From positions 22,332,558 to 22,396,557 of the forward strand of contig OZ316895.1 of NCBI GenBank assembly GCA_973895155.1: a DNA stretch of 64,000 bases, written 5' to 3'. This DNA comes from Marsupella aquatica (lineage: Eukaryota > Plantae > Marchantiophyta). This document shows positions 24,228 to 64,000 of the stretch, in pieces. Made by a program: the position numbers and the translations under genes. Under the pieces are notes generated by a model. The model did not search any database, was not told the origin of the DNA, and saw nothing but the letters and a program-made list of their open reading frames with translations. The stretch's first letter is position 1, and every line of letters begins with the position of its first letter.

Positions 24228-24895
24228 AGTGAGTTCACATGTGTGTTGGTGCAGGAGCCTCACCTCTCGTTGCGAGCTCTATTCTCTCGCTCAGTCTTTG
24301 AGAGCGCTCGTTTGATGCGTCTGTTCTTAGCAACTACAATAGTCGGTTGAAGCATTCTGTCGAAGCTCCGCGCAGCGATCTGAGCTCTATCAATCTCGTG
24401 CAAGTATTTTGCAACCAGGTCGAAGCACTTTCTGAAGCTCCCGCAAAAAAATCTTAGCTCGAGCTACTCACACTCTGTCTGGATTTCGTTCGGTACCACA
24501 TGAGGTTTAAGAATTTGGTCGAAATTCAGCACAGACGTCTTTTCTTTGCAAATACTCCGTCTTTGCTCTGGATTTTTGAGCAGTCAGCGGTCTTTGAATT
24601 TGACTTACTGAAATTTCTGCAATGCTGGCCCTGCAATTCACTTGAATGTTTCTGCAAGCAATCGGGACTCCCGGTTATCATGGTCTAACAAGCAACTGAC
24701 CAAATTTTAAATCCCGCCTGGTTTCCCCCCACTTCCCGTGCGATTTCTCCGTGCGGACAAGGGCTCTGCGCACGGACCACACCTTTGTTAGGAGGCCCTC
24801 ACTTTCCTCGGGAATTTTGACAGAATTCTTTCCAATTAGTTCTGAAGAGGTCACAGACTGAAGCCTCGGCTACGGGGTTTATTAGTGACCGCAGC

Positions 24896-27144
24896 ATGCC
24901 CGCAGTTTCAGATTCGGCAGCGATCGGGGCGAAGCCAGCAGCAGCAGCAGCAGGCCAAGGAGTACAATCGACCACAAAGCGAACCGTTGCCACCCCTAAG
25001 CCAGCAGCTGCAGCCGGGGAGGGGAGGGGCCGAGATGTAGCAACGTCTTTGGCGAATGGCGATGCGGGTGGCGCGGATGTAGCCCTTTTGAGCCACACGA
25101 AAGACTTGAGCAATGCATTGCGTACGAGGCACGATGAAGCTGCCGGGCAGCAACAACCAACAGCCAAGCACAATAAAACTGTAGCTCTGCCCAATAACAA
25201 AGGATCACCACTGAAGTACAAGTCGGTGAGGCATAAAGAGGCCAATATTACAGTTCGGAGGAAGCCGAGCTCGTTTTGGGATCTGACGGGTCACTTTTTC
25301 TCCCGCTTTTTCCTCATTTTCGTAATAGGCGCAGGACTGGGAAGTTCTTGGTGGACCTGGAGAACGCGTCCTCAACTCTCAAATTACAGTCATGGAATAA
25401 CTACGGAGGTCGAGAAACTTGAGGAGTTTGTGGCAAAGACTGCGAAATGGATGCAGGTGCAGCTGGATGCTGTAGACACGAAAATAGGGCACGAAGTTGG
25501 AGCTCTTGAGAAGGACTTGCACAATGAGCTGGACTCGCACCAGCTTCATCTTGCAACTGAGTTGAAGAATTTGAAGGAGAACGTTGGGAAGTTCGGAGCT
25601 ACCGTGGATACTTTGTTCAACCAGGGGGGGGCCATTACACAGAAGGAAGCTCTGGAACTTATCAAAAAGGTGGTGGATGAAAGGGCCGCTGATGGGAAAG
25701 GCACAGCTCTCAGTCTGGACGATGTTAGGACGGCTGCTAGACAGGTTGTGCTTCGAGAACTAGAGCGGCACTCGGCAGATGGTATTGGGAGAGTAGACTA
25801 TGCTCTGGGGAGTGGAGGTGGCAGAGTGATTGCGCATTCAGAGGGTTATTACGTTGGTAGCAGAGCCGACTGGCGGACCGTTCTGGGATTTATTCCAGGA
25901 TCTGACCGAACTCATCCCTTTGCTGGGAAGATTCTTCAGCCCACCTTTGGGGAACCTGGACAATGTCTGCCTTTGAAGGGGAGCGAAGTCTGGGTAGACA
26001 TTGCTCTGAGGACTACTATTCGTCCAGACGCCATTACACTCGAGCACGTCTCAAAGGTATAATTTTACTTGCGAGTAGTGTGACCCGACCCACAACTGTT
26101 TGTGAAGGTGGTTTGTAGCCATGTTACCTGATGCATGAGTCTTTTCACTTAACTAGTGCTGCCCTCTCGTTCATTTGTTTCCATTATATAATCGTTCTAA
26201 GCTTCGAAGCCCAGCGCATTTGTAAGGATGTTGCTCTGTATGGGCGGATAAACGCTGCTGTCAAAGAAATTAGATTTTCGTCTCTCAGCAGCTTGTTTGT
26301 TGCCTTCAGAGTTCCAGGAGTAGGTTCAGAACTGTATTGGACAATTCAATGGACTGCATATCTAGCAACTTCTCTCTGCTTAATTCGTAATAAGCCAATG
26401 GAAATTACTGGCTTTCTCTGCATGAACTGCCTGTAGGATGGTGGCAGTTAGTTGTCACTTAGTTTCTAGTGACCTATGAATGAGGTCCAATTCAGATTTT
26501 TGTTAACACTTTTTCTGGTTTATGTCACCTGCCCTGATTGGGCCCCGGCTAATGCTCACTCTTCCGAAGAAGGGAAATCTTGAGATATCACGTAATTTAA
26601 TCGGGGAATTTTCTGTCTTTTGTCTTGTGGAAGTTTTGGCTTTCCTCTTAGCTATTATTGTACATTGGGTATTTCCTGGGAACGTGCTCCTTCCAGTGGA
26701 GCGTGGACCTTCTTTGACTTTCTTGAGCTCGGTGTTGAACAAGTATTGTAGCTTCGTAAAAATTGAGTAATTCTCTTCTTGAATTGTATCATCCAGTCGA
26801 AATGAAACTGATCTCTTGATGATCCAATTATGCAGGACAATGCGTACGATTTTTCCAGTGCTCCAAAGGAGTTTCGTCTGTTTGGATGGCGTGAAGCCCG
26901 AGGGCACAGAGATGTGCAAAATCCTGTGACTATGATATCTTTCGGAGACTTTACATACGACACTGAGAAGACCAGTGTGCAGACGTTCTCTATTGCTGAG
27001 GAGGATGTTGCGGGTGCACTAATAAACATGATACGACTCCATGTTTGGTCGAATTATGGTAGTCCTACTCATACATGTATCTATCGCGTGCGAATGCATG
27101 GGTCTGACCCTGCGTTTAGTCTAGCTCCAAGACCTGCGGAATAG
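24896..27144 (+). CDS. SUN1: C-terminal SUN-domain inner nuclear membrane protein (SUN1/SUN2 type), 2 exons
   Basis: Exons 24896-26056 and 26836-27144. It has a TM segment (FFLIFVIGAGLGSSWW) and a coiled coil. The SUN domain reads ADGIGRVDYALGSGG...FGEPGQCLPLKG...ITLEHVSK|DNAYDFSSAPKEFR...SNYGSPTHTCIYRVRMHG. Confidence 0.95.
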
Positions 27145-32957: not shown

Positions 32958-35900
32958 ATGGTTTGCGTGGGCAGTTTTAGAGCAGCAGCAGCTCGGGGCA
33001 GAAGCAGCATGGTCGGGGGCAGTGCATCGACACTCTTACACCGCCTGGCCGTGACAACGGCCTCAATCGTGCCACCGTCATCTTCGTCCTCACCTTGTGG
33101 CACGTCAAAGCTCCTACGCACTTCGTGTACGACTGTGTCGTCTGTATCTTGTTCCACTAGCAGCAGTAGAGCAGGTTGGTTGTTGGCCGGGTGGAGGAGA
33201 AATTTATACATCGGGAGCTCGATCGGGAGGGCTAATTCGGCGTTCTTCGGCGGGGATTTGAGCAGCATGGCAGCTGGTACGGGACAGGAGGTGCTTGGGA
33301 AATCGCCTGCAGGAGGAGTTGGAGGGGCGAGGATGATGGGGGGAGGGCCGAGGACGTTTCCCGGCGGGGTGAGCAAATGGCAGTGGAAGCGGATGCAGGA
33401 CAAAAAGGAGAGGCAGATTGAGAAGGCTCGGCTGTTGAGAGAGCGCCAGGCTTACGAAGAGAGGCGACGACAGGAACTCCTGGCCGCTTCTCCGCGGGTG
33501 GAGAAGCCGTGGGAGGAGCGCACTATGAGGAATCCGCTGCCGCCTCCGTCTGCGGCCCGTGACCCTCAGGTTAGAGCTCTGGCTGATAGGTTCCGCAGGC
33601 ACGATGGGGAGGATTTGTGGACCGATGCGGATGGTCCTGTGTCAGCAGCGAATGGGCTGCCAAGCCTCGCTTCTGCTCGCTTTCGGTCGGACCGCTCTTC
33701 CGTTGGAATTGACAACGGTGAAGTGAAGTTCAACAGGAGAGGGGGTCGAGCTGCTCGTTCACTTGCAGATGGTGTCTCACAAGAGGAAGAAGGAACAAAC
33801 CAGTTTAGTGGTGGTACCGCTACTGCTGTTGCTGATACCGAGAGAACTTTTGATGGTCGGAGAGGGAATGCCGCGTCCCGGAGAGTGTTGAATGATGGTG
33901 TTTCAATGCCGGGAAGGGGTTCATCTGGACTGCGAGGTAAATTGGACAATTTGAGCATTAGTAGGAATTTTTCTTCTGCTTCTGGCGGAGCAATCTTAGT
34001 GGATATTGACGATGAGCGGAGAGGCGGTAGGGACAGGAATGCCCGAGGTGGTGGCGGTCCTGGGAAACAATTTTCTGAGAAGGGCCTTAACCGTTCAGGA
34101 TCAGGCAAGCGTTTTGCCGAGGCAGGACATCTGGACAGCGTATCTGTAACGGAGCCTGTGCAACAGCGGAAGAAAGCGAGACAAACTCCTTCTCCCGAAG
34201 ATGGCGAAGCCTCCACGCCGTCCCACTTATCTGAATCTCGGTAGGTGGCCGTCTTCTTTCCCTTGCTGCCCAATTTTGGAACGAATCAATCTCTGTGGAA
34301 GGACGTGAAGGTTAGGTTGGGTAAAGTATCGAACTGATATTTGCCTTCTAAATCACTGAAATGCAAAGGTAGCGTGATTTGTTTGACATCGGGTCAAGAT
34401 GACAATGTTGGGTTGACAGCCCTTTTGCACTACAGCCATGTGGGCCATCTGTAGTGATGTCTCGTTCGTCTCTTCTTGTGCAGATTTGATGCATTTCCCA
34501 TATCAAACCTGTCTATCAGAGCTTTACATGAAGTAATGGGTTATGAAAAAATGACGAAAGTTCAAGAGGCCACGTTTCCACTTATATTGCAAGGTACGAA
34601 AAACCTCGGCGCAAGACTTTTTTAAAATTTCCTTCTTTCCTTCCTTGATGAGAGATATCGTTGCTGGATTATCCTGGGACCAAGAAAATGACTCTTTTGG
34701 TCGTTTGCATATGGAACTGTAGGTAAGGATGTTCTAGCTAAGGCGAAGACAGGGACTGGCAAGACTATCGCTTTTCTGGTAGGTCACCGGATGCGATATA
34801 GCTTTTTCTTTCGCGTGTACCTTTGGCTTAGTCTGAATAATGAATTAAATTCCATGTTTAAGAATTTATCTTTGTAAACACTTCGGAAAGTTCCTTTCTT
34901 CAACCCTGCAGTTCAATGTCCCCCCAGAAGGACTCTTCTTGACTGCTACTGGTGAGTCGCATTTGTAGGCCCCCTTCCCTGACACTATGGCACTGCACCT
35001 ATTTGCTTACACGATGTTTACCTTGGCGTGCAGCTGCCTTCAATAGAGGCCATATTGAAGGCAAGTAGCGAACGCAACGCGGGATTGGCGGGCAGGAGTC
35101 CTATCAATGTCTTGATTATTTGTCCCACCAGAGAACTCGCCAGCCAAGCAGCTGCTGAAGCTAAAACTTTAATGACATATCACAAGGGGATGGGTGCACA
35201 CATTGTGATTGGAGGAACAAATATCAAGTCAGAAGCGACCAACTTGGAAAAGCGTCCGTGTCAGGTGGGTATTTGTTTTCAAAGTCAGCATTTTCATTTT
35301 TATGGGCGTTGGTGATACCTATCACACCTGTACTGCGGCAACTCAATTTCTTGGCGAATGAGCAGGCAGGGGGCGTGGTGCCTGGGTATTCCCTAAATGT
35401 GAAGTTTTCTTTCTTCCAGGTTCTTGTGGCAACACCGGGGAGGTTACTTGACCATATGACCACGTCACGAGAGATTCGGCAACAGCTCAGCCAATTAAAG
35501 GTTTTAGTTCTGGACGAGGCAGATCGCTTATTGGACATGGGCTTTCGGAAGGATTTGGAGAAAATTATCAAGATGCTTCCTCAAACCCGACAGACTCTGC
35601 TTTTTTCTGCTACAGTCCCCAAGGAGGTGTGTAATTAGGTTAGAATAGGGAAGTAAATTCCTGATTCCATCGCATGAATTTGTGCTCCCTTTTACCAATT
35701 AACCACTCGTCTGATGAGTACTCAGTGTAGGGTATCTATTCGATACTAAGAAAGCGAAGTGAAATTGCTTTATTGGCGCAATACAGAAAGAACGTGCTTC
35801 AGCCATCGATATAGAACCTAACCTGTTTGGCAGTGGGTAGTGAATCATAGCTTCAGTATTGTTCTTCTGGTGGCTGCTTCTCCTCCCATTGGGGCCGTCG

Positions 35901-52989: not shown

Positions 52990-55231
52990 TGTTTTATGGG
53001 CACCAAAGAAACTCAGGATTTTAGTGACCCACTTGCCCTTTCTTGTGTGAGGGGATACATTTTCAGGTGTTAGAAAAAACTCTCCAAGAAGGAATTTACT
53101 AGTGAGGCACTTGCTTCTCTTGTATGAGGGGACACATTTGGGGTACATTTGGACTTGTTAGATAAAGTTGTGCATGGACCCCAAAAAGAAAAGTGTTATT
53201 TGATGGGACCTCTCACTAATCCAGACCATTAATAGACCCTTAATACACCTTAAATCAACATGAGGGGCTACAACTAATTATGCATAATGCTGGCATTCAT
53301 ACATCTAAAGGCCCAAGAGATTTCCTGATTTTATTATTTTTAGTAGAAGGAGATGCATCAAAAAATAAAAAGAGAAAGGTGATGAAGGGCATCAAGAATA
53401 TCAAATTAGTCACTGCTGACAGCCCAATTGTGAACCAGTTACTATACTTTCTTTCTTTTGGGACAAACAAGCTTTTGGCACAAAATAAACCCAGAGGTTT
53501 CCCGAACCACTTACTCTTCTTATATGACGGCAACACCAACAGAACACATTTTCACATGTTAAAGAAAGCTCTGCAAGGAGGAATTTGTCCTTCACGCTCA
53601 AGTACTCTCATTTTGTGAAGGTTCCTAAACTCCAAAGTAAGAGAGCATTAAGTTATTGAATTTGGTCCACGGCAGAAATTTGCTGTGGAGTAAATCTGTT
53701 TCTGGATAGACCAATATTATCTCACTTTGATCCCTGTCAGAAATAGAGAAAAAGTCTAGGGAGTAGATATATTTTTGTGATAGATGAAGTGTCAACTGCT
53801 CTAACTCTACCTGCTCTAGGTCAGCCTTGAGCTCCATTGTGACTTTCTGCTACGCCAAGGTAAGGTTCTTGGTAATAAGAAGGTTCCTGTCAAGGAGTTC
53901 GCATTTACTACCTACTTTTGAATTTTTTAATATCTTGCTTGCTCGGTACAACCCCAAGTGTAAGCTGTCCTTCTAGCCACTTGCATTGATACACTTGGGT
54001 TTGTACTAATCTTCAAGCTCTTGACCTCCCTACAGAAGCTTCCTTTCTTGCCTCACCTTGGCAGTCAAGCAGGTTGCACCTCCTTGATGATTGACTCAGC
54101 CTGCTTTCCTTATTCATTTGTTCTTTTGCCTTGACTGGGTAATTTAATGGGAAGAATTAAAGCCCACAACCTGACCTCCTTGCCTGACACGGATTTTTTT
54201 TTAGTCATAAGCTTGGATAGAATCTCCATCCCAAAACTTTTTTCTCAGATAAGATTTCCAAGCTTGCATGTGATCTATCTGAATATGCATTTTATCTAGT
54301 ATGACATGGATTTAGAAAACATTATTGACTTTCATACAAAATGCATTACGCATCTGCCAGAATTTCCCTGACAAGCTGCCATGGTCAACTTACATTATCC
54401 ATTGGGAGTGGCTTTCAGCTACCCTATGCTCAGGCAAAATGGTGCCAGAGGATCCTTTCAAACTCAAACCTGAGGTTCTATTATTGGAGACCTGGGAGAC
54501 TAAGAATGGCCAAACCCTCTCGGATGGTAAGTGGGACATGTAAAGGTTGGGACAGTGATTGATTAGGGCCGGGAGGTAGACTAGAAGATGTAGCTGCTCT
54601 TTATTATAATTTGTCTTGGAGGAAGGTTCATTTTGTAAGCTGTATCAGTCTATTCTCAGCTGAATTTTGAATTGCATCTAGACTTAATAGGAAACATCCA
54701 GAATAAAACTGCTATATGGTGAATCCATCTTCCAATATTTTGTCTTATTCAAACTTCTTTTCTTGTGTATTTTAATTCAATGTGTCTTACCAAGGTGCAT
54801 CCCTTGTATACTTTAGATTTTGAATTTAATCTGGCACCCCTATAAATTTTTCAATCTTTGCTATACTTTTGATCATCCACCCTTTAACAAAGCTCACTGA
54901 ATTTCTAGCCCTTAGTGAAGAAGAAATGATCTAATTAAAGTGCACCCCTCATGTTCTACTCATGGTTTTGTGTCCTAAATTTATGGTTTTAATTCATTTG
55001 AGTGTCATTATCTAAGATAAGTACACAAGTATCTTTACTGGTGTATAGTATGTGCAGAACCCAATACCATAGACTTAAATTTTTCCTGTTCATTATTACT
55101 TTTTTTACATGTGTACTTTTATTTTTGTACCTTATGTGCACAACTTTTCAAATTCAGCGCGATCCCAGTATCGATGCACATTAATGCATCGATACAGGAC
55201 GGATTACAGTCACGCGAGCCTGCTTACATGC

Positions 55232-55466
55232 GATTACCAGTTTTTGCAGTCAGTGGCGTTTCCGGGCAGCCTGTCCCTTGCCGTGAGGTGCCTCTGGGCA
55301 CCTTTCCCGAAGGGGCAAGACCGGGCTGTCCCTATCGCCTTGGCGCAGTATTCCGGGCCCATTTCAGCCAACCCGCCAAGCCATCGCCTCGCGGGCTGCT
55401 CTTCGACACTCGCCCTTGTTCAATTGTATGTACATGCCGTGACAATACTTTGTCAAAATTGACCAT
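55232..55466 (+). repeat. Left TIR (visible part)
   Basis: Reverse complement of 63766-64000 except at 55257/63975 and 55309/63923. Confidence 0.97.
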
Positions 55467-55727
55467 CCTCATATCCAAAATGAGTGAACATGAACACTTT
55501 TGCGTAGTGTTGAAAATTCCATTCCCGCCAGTCTCAGTTGTCTTGACCTATTGCACTCGTTACTTTCGCTTGGGGCATTCAGTGCTGAGGCGCATCGAGC
55601 GACTGTTGCGAACTGCAGTGTACTTCCATTCTGCAGAGATCGAGCTAGGTAACAAGCAAGGTTCGTTGTCAGTGCAAACCGGAGGAGTACAGCAAGAGTC
55701 CAAGGGATTCATTTATTTGGTAAGGCA

Positions 55728-56531
55728 ATGTCGATGACAACCCTGTTCGATGTGCACAATGCAGTAATGAGAGAGGACACAGGTTTTTTGGGTCCATGTT
55801 CTGTTGTGGTATTGAACTTTATCGCCACCAATCCTTTCCCCAAGAAATTTGTGTATCGAGGCTGCACTGAGGTCGTTCCAAGAGGTTTATGTAAGATCTC
55901 AATCGAAGGCCCCAGAGTGAACCATTGTGAGCACGACGCTTTACAGAGTGGACATTACAGTGAATTCTTTCGTTTTGAGGTGTTGTTGACGGATGCTACC
56001 TTGTATTCCCATTCTGGCAAGCCTGCTTTGAGAGCTGCAATTTGGGATGCTGCGAGAGATTTAGTGGGACTCTCTGCAACTGCCCTAGCTTGTATGGAGC
56101 CACTAGACCAGTTTCAGGTCATGCACGATTCCATGAAGGACGCACCGCTTTGCAATGTGAGGTTTCGGATTAATCGTGGTATTTTGTCTATCCATGAGTT
56201 GGAAATTGTGTCTTCAAACAGTACTTTGGCACAATCTCGTCTATGGACCCAAACTCGGACTCCGCGACGACAAGCATTGCGAGCTCCACACCTCTCACCC
56301 TGCCTACGCATGCCCAGTCAGGGATGCACCCAATCTAATGCAACTCAATTCAACAGCGCTGCACCAACGTCTGGTATTGTAGTGTCATCCCCGTGCCTAC
56401 CAATGCCGACACATTCACCAGTAACCGAATCCAAGGCAGCATCTTATGCCACGACTACATCAAGTGTCGGAGAAGTGTCAGACGTGGTACAAGCTGAACG
56501 AGGGAATGAAAGCATCAAAGACATCCCGTAG
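55728..56531 (+). CDS. Transposon accessory protein A: RPA70 DBD-C (Rep_fac-A_C)-like zinc-ribbon OB fold with Ser/Thr/Pro-rich tail
   Basis: 267-aa intronless ORF. TTLFDV..VVVLNFI..FVYRGC-x8-C..HCEH..FRFEVLLTDAT..LRAAIWDAARDLVGLSATAL parallels the RPA1 DBD-C pattern (KTIAEI..ATIVFI..WYPAC..C..CxxC..YILSLNVADHTG..LTLFDEVAEQIFGKSAEEL). Aligned by eye. Confidence 0.7.
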   Translation: MSMTTLFDVHNAVMREDTGFLGPCSVVVLNFIATNPFPKKFVYRGCTEVVPRGLCKISIEGPRVNHCEHDALQSGHYSEFFRFEVLLTDATLYSHSGKPALRAAIWDAARDLVGLSATALACMEPLDQFQVMHDSMKDAPLCNVRFRINRGILSIHELEIVSSNSTLAQSRLWTQTRTPRRQALRAPHLSPCLRMPSQGCTQSNATQFNSAAPTSGIVVSSPCLPMPTHSPVTESKAASYATTTSSVGEVSDVVQAERGNESIKDIP

Positions 56532-57048
56532 GGCACCATGTCATCCATTGTTCGACGACTAGCAGAAGCTTTTAGTGCATCCCTAGATGTGTATTCTGGG
56601 CGCAAGGGATAGTTTAGACTTGTTCTAGGCAAACATACATACATGTAGCCCGACATGTAGCCATTTTGGTTTTGCAAGTAGCCTCGGTCTTCTTGCTCTA
56701 TTGCAACTGAATGCAATATGACAGAACGCTAGACTGATGTCTGGTTGATTGAATATGTATGACGATGAAACAAAAGTTTGCATTTTCATCAATGTGATGT
56801 CATCCTTACTACTATGTAATTCATGTCAACACAGTTTTCTTTTTGAAACTGTCAAACAATTACTCTGTATAGTGTGGACTGGCAGGCACCTGCAGTTTTA
56901 TGCATGCCTCCACTTTCATGCCCTTCACTGTCCCGGTCATTGCCATTCCAAGGCTGACCGGTCTATATTGTATTCCCACCAAAATGTATATTGTATTGCA
57001 ACCATTTGTGAAGTGGATCATGTGACATTGCAACGTACAGTGTAACTC

Positions 57049-57101
57049 CATCTCACTCTGACTCTGTCAGTAACGCATCTCACTCTGACTCTGTCAGTAA
57101 C
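57049..57101. repeat. ~27-bp tandem duplication inside the transposon
   Basis: CATCTCACTCTGACTCTGTCAGTAAC twice. Confidence 0.85.
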
Positions 57102-57167
57102 AAAATTCAGTTCCATTCCCGCAATGATTTTCACTATTCATATATTGATTGCAGGTGTGACGATATA

Positions 57168-59197
57168 ATGCCACGAAGAAAGACTCAGGTACAACTACAA
57201 ACCCAACCCGCTCACGAATTAGTTCAGGAATTAGAACATGAGTACTGAGTTAGTGCCACACCACGCTAATGACTCGTAGACTCACGTAGTGCATGTGCTC
57301 CCATTTCAGGCTCCCAGGCCGGCTATGTGCAAACCCACCGTGCTCCACCATGGATCATCGGAGCCGGATGTGGATCATGATGTGGCAGTGGTCCCTGAGG
57401 CAAGACCGCATGCACTCGACCATGCTCGTGCCTACTCTGTTCAGTCTCCTGCCATCCTGCCTCAAACACATCAGCTGCTCCTAGTGGAGGACCCACCACC
57501 GGTCCCACAGGCTCAGTCCTCTGAACCCATGGACGTCAATAATTGTCCAGAGGACGAAACCCAGGCTGCGGGAGTCACACTACCGAGGCCATCCAAAATT
57601 GGTCCAAGGACATGTGGGAAGAGGAGGAGGTCAAATGCTGGAGTTCAATACCCCCCGCCAACACGTAACCCACGTAACGCAAGGACCACGGATGGCAGCT
57701 GCTCTCCCGAGCATGGACCTTTGCAATCGGAACAAAATTTCACCCCCAAGCGCGGACCTTTGTGCAGCTGTGTAGCAATGCCCGAAGCATGTGCAATGTG
57801 CAATTCGGTAAGTTGCACATTTCTTAAATCAGACATGTACATTAAAATTGTATATGTCAGTGGGAAGGCCTTCGACTCAAAGCACATAAGTTTTTTCTTT
57901 GTGAACAAGAGTCACGAGTCACCTGCAAAGCTGTAGAGGGAGTGCATTTTTGTGAAGAAGGCATTGGCGCTGTGTGCAAGACATTGCCGTGCAAGAATGT
58001 GCGTTTCAATAACCGTCGCACATATGGCTGCCATGTTTTCAAGAAGCATGGCCTCATCACTGAAGGCACCCCTCGATCCTTCTATACAAAACACATTGTT
58101 CCTCTGAATGGTGCCACATCGAACCAAGCAGGACCGCCTTTGTCCTCCAATTACGTTGACGTGAGGGGAACACTGCGACAAAGATGGAGCATTGCAAAAA
58201 GAAGGGTCAAGTACGTAGATCCGCAAAACAAAGGTCCCACTCATTCTGAATGTACCATGAATTGCATGATATTGTCTCCTGTCATAGGTGGCCAAGACGT
58301 ACTGAGTTCAAGGGCATGCAATTTGTGGTGCAGGGCAATGACTCACTCCAAGTACGTCATCCAATTTCAAGACAATCGTTTAAGAAACCCCCCGCCAACA
58401 GTTCCATCTGAACCTATGTTTATCATGTTCTTTGAGTTGATCATGCCAACTATTGGGTTCCAGGTGTGGGATAGTCTTCTCAATGACAGTGACTGGGCCT
58501 GCTTGCAATCCTTGGTTTTGCAATGCCCACATTCCGAAACCGTGTGTTCGTGGACCACCAAAGCTTTGTCTAATGTCGACCATACTGCCCATGGACACTT
58601 AAACAACTTTCAAGTCGAAAGACTAACCCGACTTGCTACAGTGTTGAGGAATTTCTTTGAACCAGTTCAAGGCTCAATTGATGCTCATTTGATCGATTAT
58701 GCAATGTCGCAGTCGAGACAGTACATGTGTGATGACGCTTTGAATTGGATGCGTATAAAGCGCGACAGTCTAATCTGGGATGAGGAACACGGATGGGGAA
58801 TTTATCAGACTCTAGGGGAAAAGGAGTACAAGCGCTGGAAGGAAGGGAACAAGCGGACTGCCATTGAATGTTACATACCCAATGTAGTGGCGACTTACAA
58901 GATAGTGCACCAATCTTGTACCGATGATTTTGCAATGGAGCAGGTACTTACCTTTTTTACTTTACATCAGTGCAATGTCCGTGTTTATATCACAGATTGA
59001 GCCTTAATGCTTAACTTTGTGATAACATTTGTCTAATGTATTCACTCACGAAAAGTGTTGGAGCTCAGGTTATGCTGGAGGCTGTGTGGACTGACACCTC
59101 AGACGACGAGCCAATAGATGAGTCTGATGGTGATAGAAAGGATGAGGAGCGTTGCCTTGACGAAGATGCGGCTGATCTGTTTGGAAATGTAGTGTAG
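57168..59197 (+). CDS. Transposon accessory protein B: unknown ~576-aa protein with a Cys-rich patch, C2H2-like finger and acidic tail (4 predicted exons)
   Basis: Exons 57168-57188, 57310-57807, 57861-58943 and 59069-59197 join in frame through GT-AG introns (intron 2 is only 53 nt). Finger CKTLPC-KNVRF-NNRRT-YGCH-VFKKH. C-terminus DTSDDEPIDESDGDRKDEE. Confidence 0.7.
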
Positions 59198-59744
59198 TAA
59201 TGGAATTTACTATATGTCAGTCCCATGTATTGGAGCACTGTTCATTTTGCACTTTTCGAACTTGCGTAGGTATTTAGAAGGGGCCCGCTAGAGGCAACCA
59301 TACATAGTCATGCTCCCCAGTGCCATGTAAAACCGATGCTATTCTGTGGATCCAGACAAAATAAACAATTTTTTCCGTCATTACCAATGCAATATATTTC
59401 CCTTTAATACCGTGTAAGGCGCGCATGACCCTGGAACTGTGACCAAAGACATTCATTTTCATTCAGACAATGTGGATTTTGTGTGAATACATTGTGGGGA
59501 ATCACTCATTTGCGGCCCCATGCAATGATTTTGCATGAGCACATTGTGTTTGCTGACTTGCGGCCCCATGCACAGTACCTTTGGGCTTGAAGACGATGAC
59601 TGGGTAAATGTTTTTGCACAAGTCAACTTGTGGGCTACAATTTTTTTTATCGCGCCATGCCTTTATATATGATGCCCATTCCTAAAATAGAACCAAAACG
59701 CGCGTGACCATAGCACATCGTGACAAAAATAAGTCTGAAATGGG

Positions 59745-59774
59745 TGTTCGATGTTCGATGTTCGATGTTCGATG
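59745..59774. repeat. (TGTTCGA)4 heptamer repeat between the convergent transposon genes
   Basis: Four perfect units. Confidence 0.9.
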
Positions 59775-60130
59775 ACACTACGTATCCACAATTGATACTA
59801 TTCCGAGCTCATCCTTAGGAGCAGTCGCTTGTCTTTCAGATGTCAATCCCGAAGAGAAGGCATGTAAGATTTCAGGGAAAGTGGGCGACATAGCCCACGT
59901 CTGGCTACAGCCTATGTGGATTTCACCAAGAATGTCCATGTTGACGTGACTCGCAGGGGCTTGAAGGACTCTTGATTTAGAAGCATCCGCAACTGCGGCG
60001 CGTAGTGGGAAGGGTGTAGCTGAGCGGTTCTTTTTGGTCTTGGCTGCCCTTGATGTGACGGGCTTTGCAGATTTGCCAATTACCTTAGCACTGTGGTCTG
60101 TGATGGCTGCGCACATGTCCCCCAGGGCTT

Positions 60131-63100
60131 CTATGGATTCCTTATCAAACTTAGCTTGGAATGATAAAGCTTTCTCTTTCGTTTAATCTGCAGTTTATCG
60201 GGGATGTTGTGGCCACGCACCATATTCCGAGGGTCCCCCTTAGGACTCGGGTCTTCATTCTCTTTGTTGCATGGCTCATTGCCGAGGTTCCCTTTCCGCT
60301 TGCGTCTACCCTTTGCACTCATCAACTTGTCAACCCAGCCGCGTTTCAGGACGGTCGATCTGTCTGTACCCTCAGTTGGAGTGAGTGTCTCAAGCGCAGT
60401 CTCAGGCTCCAGCCTCGCAACATTTTGTTGTGCCTCTCTGACAAACAAAGACTCCATCCAGTGCTTGAGCTCAATCAACCCTTGTTTGGCAAGGGTCGGG
60501 TGATATGAGATTTGATGGTAACATCTGGAGATAACCAATTCGAACTCCTCCAAAGGCGGAGAAAGGTCATCAACCTGGGTTGCGGCTTCCTCTGGTGCCT
60601 CCCACATATCTTCGCCATCATACATCAGACTCACATTGCCTACCTGCGTTGGCAATTCTGCACCTTCCCCATGCGCATCATTGAAGTGGTGGTCAAGCCC
60701 ACCCGAAAAGGACCCCATTTTTGTTCCAAGCCGATGGAGAATTTCCAACTCTGTCATTTTGTTTGTAAGCAACAAAACTTTGATCTGCACATCAACACAT
60801 GAAGGCCATGTAAGAATGCAAATGACGTCCGTGCCCGTAGTTTACATGCACTATTCAAAAGCATATAAGCGGAGCTGGTATGAAAATTACCTGATGCTTG
60901 CATGCATTTCCCTGTAATGAATACCCACATGTACATCCACAACTGTCTCTGTCCCAGTCCGTGACAAGATGCTCCTTGGTCCCAGGATTCTTCGAGGATG
61001 TGCTGCGAACGCATGCACATTGCGCCACCCCACACTGAAATGTTTGAACGTAATCATCTGGGATGGCTTTGGCTCTATTGAGGGACTTATGCACAAGCTG
61101 CTCGATTGTCTTGTTCCTGATGCGACCTTGGAACTTTTCTGCAGCAATACACCAATAGTGATTCTCGAGGACTCTCAGTCGACCAAGTAGCCATGGAATA
61201 GACCTACCTGTAATGCTGTACCTACCCGCCTTCAACTCCATTTTCAGGGTGTGGTGCCAACGTTCGATACCCCCGTTTGTATTTTGGTTGGCATGATGAT
61301 ACCCTCTTAACTTGACTGCCCATGAACAAACCTTATTGTGCCACTCTCTTTTGTAGTAAGCTACAAAAACAGGTTGGTTGTCGACCCACCGATCCATAAA
61401 GGCTTCCGACTCTTCTGTGATGTCTGAGAAGTAAAATGTTAGCACGGAACATGAGGATGACATATACAAATTTTGAAAAGTACATTTACTGTATATGGAT
61501 CCCATGGCAGGAATAATAAGCAACGAAACTCACCAGTCCCTTCAGAGTACATTATTGCTCCCAAATGTGCATTGATTTGGGCTTTGGCAAATGGGCAGAA
61601 TACTTTTGTGATTATATTTTTTGTCCAGGCACGTCGAACATGCCATGTGCAAAAAGTGATATGCACTTTTGGAAATACCTGTCTGTACACATGGCAAATT
61701 GCACTGTCAAAATGAAGTTCGCAAGTGGTTTTCATGTTACAAGGCACAGTGCTTGAAAGTAAATACTGAATTACTGTACCTGATAGCTTTTTGTTCCTCA
61801 TCTGCTACATCGATAATCCAACAATTAGGAGTCCAAGGAATGGGTAGATTCAGATCTGCCCTCCTAGCATTCACACAATCTTTCAAAGCCGTCAAGATTT
61901 GGCACACTTGCAGGGCTCCATAGGTTTGCAATAGAGCAAATGCTACAGGAATGGCGTTCTGGAATTTGTCGAAGACTACCACCGTGTAAAAGGAGAACTG
62001 CAATAAATAAGAAAACATGTTAGAAACACACGGAAATTGAATTCAATACGTAACAAACAGTCACTTTCTTCTCCAGGGCAATAAAACACATTCCAGTTCA
62101 GAGCTTACGCCAAAGTGATTGGTGCCAAAAGTTGCATCAAATGCAACAGGTCCTTCATGACCAAGTTGAGCTAGCTTCTTCTGCTGCCAAGGAGATGACC
62201 ACATGAGGATGAAAGGCTGGTTTTCCAATTTAATCTGTGGCTGATATAACAAAACTTGGTCGCCATTTTGAATGACCCACAATTGTATAGCTTGTGCTTC
62301 GTCAGAGCAGTAATCCGGTTGCCGCCGTCGCATTGAGTCCCTCACTGTTTGGACATCTCGTGGAGTAAGCTGCATATCCCTGGACATGATGACATCTGCA
62401 TCCTCGTCCGGGTGGTCTTTCCGCCATCTTGTAAGAATCTCTTCGAAGTGAGCATCAACAATTGCCCTGGCTGTCAAACCTGCTCTGAGGTAGCGTTCTA
62501 TTTTAGTCCGTAGCTTCAATGAAATTCTTGGGGCTATGTGTGCATTTGCTTCAAAGGCAGTGGAATCCTGCAGGCCATGGCAAACCAAATTCTGTCTATC
62601 CAAATGATCTTTGCGGATCCATCTGATCAATAGAGCCCCTGGACGATCCTCAAATTTTGTAGAAGTAAAAGAACATCTACATCCTCGGCGGACAGACATC
62701 CCTGCATGCACGAGAGGGAGGAATCTATAGTTTAGAGGGAGGAAAAGATTCGCACAAAAGAGAGAGTGTTATAGTCAAACACTGATTTAAAGAGGAAATT
62801 GGGCAGAATGAAACAAATGACAGCGAATGACTCATTGGAATTGAAGTGACCTGTTAATGTTTTCCTCTTTAGAAAAATGCCCGCCTCCTTAGATTTGAGT
62901 TTCTCAGGGACCTTGGTTGATTTCCAGCCTCGGTAATCTTCTGGACCAAAGCAACAGCAATACAAGGTTGTGGTCTTGACCAAAGGGCCAGTTCTGTAGA
63001 TTCGGTTCTCCACCATGTGTCGGGTGGTGAACTGAGTGTGGAAATTGTCTCGCATGTTCTCACCCCATATAAAATCTGTAAGCCTAGCCTCAGGAATCCA

Positions 63101-63523
63101 AGCGTAATCCTGTTTAGATCCAAACCATTGAAGAGCAGTGTATTCGAATTCCCCAAGAGGCGGAATCTGAATTCTATCACATGTTGAGTAGGTACAGTGG
63201 CTTCTGCGTATAGTAGGACATTTCCGTGGAAGGGAATCGCGCTTCATATGTGCATCCTCGTCCAAATTCAGGTCACGCACATGCTGTTCAATGCCATCTA
63301 GTGCATGTGCTACACGGGGTGCTACAGCATTTTCCGTTGTACTGACCTTAAATTCATCTTGCACTTCGTCGAACCTGTGTACCGGCAAGAATTTTGTTCC
63401 ATTGTTGAACGCGAGCATCCTTTGATGCAAAAAAGCATCGGACATTGGCATAGGCCCAGTATGGGACGAAGAGCCTGCATTGCACACGACTTCCCGCTGT
63501 CCAAGTGCCGCCAAAGTAGACAT
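60131..63523 (-). CDS. MULE DDE transposase with C-terminal SWIM finger, ~939 aa, 6 exons
   Basis: Exons 63523-62851, 62701-62109, 61997-61780, 61682-61534, 61423-60891 and 60784-60131 join in frame. Catalytic motifs: AFDATFGTN (D1), WIIDVADEE (D2), FCTWHVRRAW (CxxH), NTNGGIERWH (E). SWIM finger CTCGYSLQGNACKH. The N-terminal WIP..DFIWGE / YCCCFGPEDY / RRGCRCSF..H..CHG domain resembles the At1g60560/At4g13970 SWIM proteins. The start codon is uncertain. Confidence 0.92.
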
Positions 63524-63765
63524 GACACCAGTGAAGTCAGCAGTTAGCACGAGACGACTGCACGCGAGAGAATGACGAACTACCAATTTGCAGAACATTC
63601 CATTCCTCATGCGAAAATGTGAATGCTGTGGCAGGGAATGTGCAGAATGCCTTGCAGTCCGCCAGCACGAGGAATCAGCGAAACTCTGCAGACTACACCC
63701 ACGTTCTCTGCCATTCCAATCCCGCTCAAAACAAACTGTATTCATGTTTGAATGAGTACAAAGTA

Positions 63766-64000
63766 ATGGTCAATTTTGACAAAGTATTGTCACGGCATGT
63801 ACATACAATTGAACAAGGGCGAGTGTCGAAGAGCAGCCCGCGAGGCGATGGCTTGGCGGGTTGGCTGAAATGGGCCCGGAATACTGCGCCAAGGCGATAG
63901 GGACAGCCCGGTCTTGCCCCTTTGGGAAAGGTGCCCAGAGGCACCTCACGGCAAGGGACAGGCTGCCCGGAAACACCACTGACTGCAAAAACTGGTAATC
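63766..64000 (-). repeat. Right TIR (truncated by the window end)
   Basis: Reverse complement of 55232-55466. Confidence 0.97.

Follow-up and report, generated by a model that had tools for sequence, protein, structure and literature searches.

A Mutator-like element of the liverwort Marsupella aquatica with a transposase and two accessory genes that recur in sister copies

A stretch of 64,000 nucleotides from the liverwort Marsupella aquatica (GenBank assembly GCA_973895155.1, contig OZ316895.1, positions 22,332,558 to 22,396,557 of the forward strand; hereafter the window) contains, at 55152-64000, a Mutator-like element (MULE) of the multi-gene kind, which carries a transposase and two accessory genes, denoted here gene 1 and gene 2. 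Genes 1 and 2 read inward from the left terminal inverted repeat (TIR) and the transposase reads inward from the right one. Both additional genes recur in sister copies of this three-gene MULE, which are represented by contigs of public sequencing runs (designated X1, X2 and so on), and on balance they probably serve the element itself. Accessory open reading frames (ORFs) in MULEs are already known, the available part of one source naming mudrB, mutB and vanB/vanC (PMC6446971); what appears new here is the two accessory families, found in a multi-gene MULE akin to VANDAL or MuDR. The literature searched, with Repbase and subscription journals outside the search, yielded no description of an OB-fold or RPA gene in a MULE, nor of the C2H2 zinc-finger family to which gene 2 belongs.

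The TIRs are identical at 233 of 235 bases (55232-55466 against 63766-64000) and their inner edges are sharp, in agreement with the near-identical TIRs of at least 235 bp reported in a preliminary description of this DNA that was made from the sequence alone. The right TIR (63766-64000, minus strand) is cut by the end of the window; the full length of about 310 bp is judged from the left TIR (55152-55466, plus strand), which extends to about 55152-55157, and lies in the range of hundreds of base pairs that characterizes the Mutator/MULE superfamily. The left outer end is delimited from both sides, as contigs of the flanking repeat cease to match at 55147 and 55151 and the alignment of a sister TIR contig begins at 55152. 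No loose contig end showed a target-site duplication, which would be 8-11 bp long in this superfamily. A subterminal palindrome at approximately 55160-55200, which folds as a DNA hairpin at -13.6 kcal/mol, might be a binding site of the transposase. The element inserted into an AT-rich repeat of very high abundance (54706-55151), within which a unit of about 85 bp is duplicated; the summed depth of this repeat in run X1 is about 2,300-2,500 versus 16.7 for the flank. The observed/expected ratio of CpG, 0.16 in the flank, rises to 0.65 in the element and to 0.96 in the TIR, and these higher ratios fit a young insertion. A recent date of insertion, as initially proposed, is supported.

The transposase is encoded on the minus strand by six exons (63523-62851, 62701-62109, 61997-61780, 61682-61534, 61423-60891 and 60784-60131; 939 aa), with an ATG at 63523, five GT-AG introns of 97-149 nt and no internal stops. 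The catalytic residues D413, D485 and E598 are intact, and the protein retains the CxxH motif (CTWH, 506-509) and the SWIM finger (708-721), so the set of catalytic motifs noted previously is complete. The closest transposase found, R1sor_019175 of Riccia sorocarpa (KAL3701153.1; 37% identity over 792 columns), has the same order of domains, namely MULE, ZSWIM-RNaseH and SWIM; it matches PF10551 with an E-value of 3.6e-12, and the transposase of the window matches this family with an E-value of 0.005, on one exon. The transposase may also resemble two domesticated SWIM genes of Arabidopsis. Among the variants of sister copies listed for the transposase, 17 of 24 are synonymous and 7 are replacements. 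A further frame of 134 codons on the same strand (59778-60182), corresponding to the C-terminal tail, opens about 50 bases ahead of the transposase stop and is out of frame with the main ORF. Both variants listed for this tail frame are synonymous, and short-read contigs of runs X1 and X2 over 60141-60499 agree with the letters of the window without a single difference; for these two reasons the transposase tail of the window copy is probably frameshifted near 60185, although the tail frame may instead be joined by an unusual intron.

The element or a part of it is present in six public runs. Pieces of the exact window copy, with 0-1 differences, were found in four of them, and the run that matches best may be the one from which the window itself derives; in run X1 the depth of these pieces is 14-18 versus 16.7 for the flank, so that the copy looks single there, and in run X5, where 3 of 56 contigs reach 99% identity or more, it seems to be missing, but the depth of that run is low and such a gap proves nothing. 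Contigs that are 80-95% alike span, between them, all three genes, and diverged contigs over both gene 1 and gene 2 were found in all four runs compared, which come from four studies and bear three organism labels. Sister contigs link the TIR directly to the start of gene 1 (run X4, record 55339-55741; joint 55600-55715); at another joint, 59696-59860, they connect the spacer with the tail of the transposase. The run labelled organism C contains diverged pieces of both accessory genes and of the spacer. One organism C contig of 151 bases (58840-58990) is identical to the window while the other pieces are diverged, and it may be carry-over. The summed depth in run X1, which is not a copy number and is used for its pattern only, peaks at 8-12x the single-copy level over the folded part of gene 1 and the finger of gene 2 and drops to 1-2x over the disordered start of gene 2. 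Two derivative structures were also observed: runs X3 and X4 contain a copy with an 856-base deletion in gene 2 (58149-59006) and 24 filler bases, and a contig of run X4 joins 63506 to 55162 via 26 other letters, perhaps representing a rearranged or nested derivative.

Gene 1 (55731-56531, plus strand) consists of one exon and encodes 266 aa in the window copy, comprising a predicted OB fold (aa 1-165, with C45, C54, C66 and H68) and a Ser/Thr/Pro-rich linker. The stop codon at 56529-56531 removes a conserved in-frame C-terminal extension of 26 codons (56532-56612, plus strand), the frame of which is open, with both listed variants synonymous. At the position of the stop, three sister contigs of run X1 have an open codon (one loose end lies at 56536), which indicates that the protein of this family ends in a short conserved tail behind the folded domain and the linker, and that the window copy has lost this tail. 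Each variant was classed singly against the window codon, and the set analysed comprises the 40 best supported of 841 and the 40 best supported of 882, of which 3 are common to both lists and 7, not lying in coding frames, were excluded. Within codons 1-165, 13 of the 18 listed changes are synonymous and 5 are replacements (29% synonymous expected; p=1.6e-4), and the listed changes in C45, C66 and H68 are synonymous only, whereas in the linker 4 of 18 are synonymous (folded part versus linker, Fisher p=0.007). These substitutions show that the folded part of gene 1, like the transposase, is under purifying selection. Given the presence of both genes in sister copies, this selection on gene 1 and the confinement of conservation to exons in gene 2 (see below), the extra genes appear to be standing parts of the family rather than one-off cargo, and both accessory families look to be maintained by selection.

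The folded domain of gene 1 is quite probably an OB fold of the RPA70C/POT1 type, as the preliminary description had suggested. In the ESM Atlas, the domain lies near unnamed fungal and plant clusters with scores of 0.90-0.94 and near Rep_fac-A_C and POT1 clusters at 0.90, with 165-172 features in common, and 9 of the 10 best family-bearing matches share a common family or clan. The Cys/His cluster and the order of strands and helix also fit the RPA70C pattern. The likeness, conveyed by the Atlas features, extends to the C-terminal domain of RPA70 (PF08646) and to the OB folds of POT1 and MEIOB; unlike these proteins, gene 1 encodes a single domain followed by a linker and a short conserved tail, without a match by hidden Markov model (HMM) or sequence. 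Indeed, several results weigh against the OB-fold assignment, so that the support for the earlier claim is moderate: Atlas scores of 0.9 were reached by shuffled proteins in 4-10 of 100 cases, there were no matches to Pfam or NCBIfam families, including PF08646 and its relatives, and PDB sequence searches were empty or returned chance matches only. The word-index search found no homologues of gene 1, the deep HMMER search covering gene 2 only, and the single-sequence structure model reached a pLDDT of 38 and is unusable, so that fold searches with it carry no weight.

Gene 2 (exons 57168-57188, 57310-57807, 57861-58210, 58334-58943 and 59069-59197, plus strand; 535 aa) encodes, in this order, a disordered N-terminus, a C2H2 finger (57975-58049, plus strand; aa 212-236), a basic helix, an all-helical domain and an acidic WxDTSD(D/E)E motif (59087-59110, plus strand). 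Its position and that of gene 1 agree with the two further genes previously seen reading inward from the left TIR. Introns 1 and 2 (121 and 53 nt) are tentative, and the later ones are fixed by relatives and sister contigs. The similarity of the sister contigs ends at the donors 57808 and 58211, and the intron 58944-59068 is equal in length but diverged in sisters, flanked by conserved exons; two contigs, which differ at 50 and 61 positions over about 400 coding bases of gene 2, are free of gaps. A model with two introns at 58211-58287 and 58352-58463 was discarded, as sister contigs and relatives show a single intron, 58211-58333, the splicing of which raises the profile score to 313 bits versus 281 unspliced (the spliced model includes the last exon too).

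The preliminary description had called the product of gene 2 an orphan zinc-finger protein. The finger is confirmed as C2H2: the spacing C-x4-C-x13-H-x4-H or a close variant is retained in five relatives (P0002, P0010, P0011, P0018 and P0019), relatives give weak matches to zf-C2H2_jaz and B129_C2H2, and the predicted structure has strands followed by a helix with a pLDDT of about 75. A reading of the cysteines as an AWS/SET domain was dropped, only the C2H2 residues being kept by the relatives. The orphan status, in contrast, does not hold, with 17 relatives, among them CAM6122973.1, CAM6126520.1 and CAM6096921.1, found at E<=0.001 by HMMER among 1.84 billion proteins. The organism is known for 11 of these relatives and is in every case Calypogeia fissa; each of the 11 lies on a separate contig, which is the pattern of a dispersed mobile family. 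One of them, P0010 (CAM6103829.1), follows a PLATZ domain (E 4.9e-19), through either domain capture or an annotation merge. Together with the Riccia match of the transposase, the Calypogeia relatives point to a probable liverwort host. The word-index search for homologues of gene 2 was empty, the ESM Atlas gave no usable match, and a metagenome scan returned two loci, one of which (L001) lies in a bacterial protein and matches by chance; viral and phage scans returned no loci. No Pfam family matched the pieces of gene 2. The all-helical domain, predicted with a pLDDT above 90 in P0002, is without a fold match: Foldseek found none for the P0002 model at E<=0.001, and in a comparison with 48,161 chains the best Z was 7.5 over 46 residues, which demonstrates neither a match nor a new fold.

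The genes of maize MuDR, mudrA and mudrB, are convergent and start near each TIR, as do those of the element described here. Long TIRs, a transposase and a second ORF are further shared features according to the portions of the MuDR literature available; the difference is that the present element has two accessory genes, and their likeness to MURB, judged by Pfam only, yielded no match. VANDAL21/Hiun (vanA, vanB and vanC) has, like the present element, a MULE transposase and two accessory ORFs, one of which is a sequence-specific DNA-binding anti-silencing factor, as stated in the accessible parts of two sources (PMC6446971, PMC5735166). However, TIRs are absent from VANDALs or short, whereas those of the present element are about 310 bp long, and the targets of VANC are tandem arrays, which the present element lacks. 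VANC carries DUF1985/DUF287 in the source portions available, and gene 2 carries a C2H2 finger; the Pfam search found neither DUF in the pieces of gene 2 or in its 17 relatives. An excerpt of a preprint also notes a likeness of VANC to MAIL1 (bioRxiv 10.1101/2024.04.02.587720). The MULEs that carry ULP1 are the Kaonashi elements (PMC13317346, in part), and Kaonashi, mutB of Mutyl and TnpA of Spm, as far as the consulted portions describe them, also represent conserved accessory genes in cut-and-paste transposons, with domains unrelated to those found here.

By analogy with MULE biology, the DDE transposase would bind the TIRs and would cut and paste the element, and the two near-identical TIRs are likely promoters, one for the transposase and one for gene 1. 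Gene 2 may well be, as a tentative assignment by analogy, a DNA-binding protein that regulates the activity of its own element: its finger and basic helix would bind the ends or promoters of the element, and the recruitment of activating or chromatin factors, known from VANC and TnpA for their respective elements, would fall to its helical and acidic parts. The 2,946 non-coding bases of the element contain no dense motif array of the VANC type, which counts against this proposal; the highest counts of 7- to 10-mers are 6, 4, 3 and 3 versus a 95th percentile of 7, 4, 3 and 3 in 200 random sequences, and only short local tandems were detected. Given this absence of dense arrays, any target of gene 2 would be the TIRs or promoters. 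The motif CCATTCC occurs on the plus strand of non-coding DNA at 55519, 56943, 57113, 59676, 63600 and 63711, four of these sites being near gene starts, and is not above chance. For gene 1, it is possible but doubtful that the protein binds single-stranded DNA where the element has been excised and makes restoration of the donor copy the more frequent outcome of repair. There the OB domain would cover the exposed single strands, the conserved C-terminal peptide would steer repair to using the sister chromatid as the template from which the element is restored, and such repair would raise the copy number of the element. The broadest version of this scenario appears unlikely: a liverwort-wide MULE lineage that duplicates via repair with its own RPA-like single-stranded DNA binder and possesses an independently evolved C2H2 anti-silencing factor whose helical domain has no known fold, which would be a second VANC-like origin outside flowering plants.

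Both genes could also be genuine genes of the element that act in the transposition reaction or in target choice, as cofactors similar to MURB or TnpA, rather than in silencing or repair. Such a cofactor role, in integration, is the main rival explanation and is rather unlikely. In its favor, VANC-type arrays are absent from the element, mudrB is apparently required for integration (PMC6446971, available portion) and TnpA is needed for the transposition of Spm (bioRxiv 10.64898/2026.08.24.746577, available portion), but AtMu1, as reported in the portion of the literature consulted, is mobile with the transposase alone.

That the extra genes serve the element at all is contested by a quite improbable alternative, under which they are passively captured host sequence, as in Pack-MULEs, or gene 1 was brought in by a Helitron nested in the element. 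Plant Helitrons carry RPA70-like genes, gene 1 resembles host domains of the RPA/POT1 type, and it is truncated in the window copy. The uptake of host fragments by MULEs is moreover frequent (PMC13317346, in part). However, the element contains a transposase and gene 1 has a synonymous excess, neither of which is expected of a Pack-MULE; this excess is found in the folded part and not in the linker (p=0.007 as above), the conservation of gene 2 is confined to exons, and no host-like parent is found among its 17 relatives. Unlike the RPA-like genes of Helitrons, gene 1 is enclosed by MULE TIRs and apparently not by Helitron ends; the TIR is joined straight to gene 1 in sister copies, and a scan for CTRR-T with an upstream hairpin returned six weak sites (-4.2 to -5.8 kcal/mol), none of them convincing. 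It is very improbable that genes 1 and 2 come from another mobile or host family and were enclosed by the TIRs locally and recently, as the PLATZ fusion of P0010 might suggest, since the TIR and gene 1 are already connected in sisters 80-95% alike, and since the organism C run contains pieces of the two genes and of their spacer.

The preferred reading, that of two accessory genes serving their own MULE, faces further points on the negative side. No sister contig covers all three genes, and the variants are not independent, several coming from one contig. The neutral evolution that was to be looked for in the accessory genes is contradicted by the folded part of gene 1, but the variants of gene 2, 3 of 6 of which are synonymous, are too few to show selection. 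The window copy has two lesions that the preliminary description does not mention, the stop in gene 1 and the probable frameshift in the transposase tail, and may therefore not be fully autonomous.

Several other features were recorded. Between the 3' end of gene 2 and that of the transposase, the spacer contains a TATA-like stretch (59658-59670) that can be read on either strand, and 4.3 tandem copies of a 7-bp unit (59745-59774). Outside the element, the window contains host genes for a SUN-domain protein (24821-26059; E 6.6e-7) and a DEAD-box helicase (35165-35635; E 1.9e-21).

The roles of the accessory genes of Mutator elements, such as mudrB and vanB, are still open, and the well-studied cases all come from flowering plants. 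The element described here adds two conserved accessory families from a liverwort. If the proposed functions are true, the OB-fold helper would be a concrete route to a higher copy number of a cut-and-paste element through gap repair, and the C2H2 factor with its new helical domain could be an independent answer to host silencing. Both readings are open to test in Marchantia or Physcomitrium.

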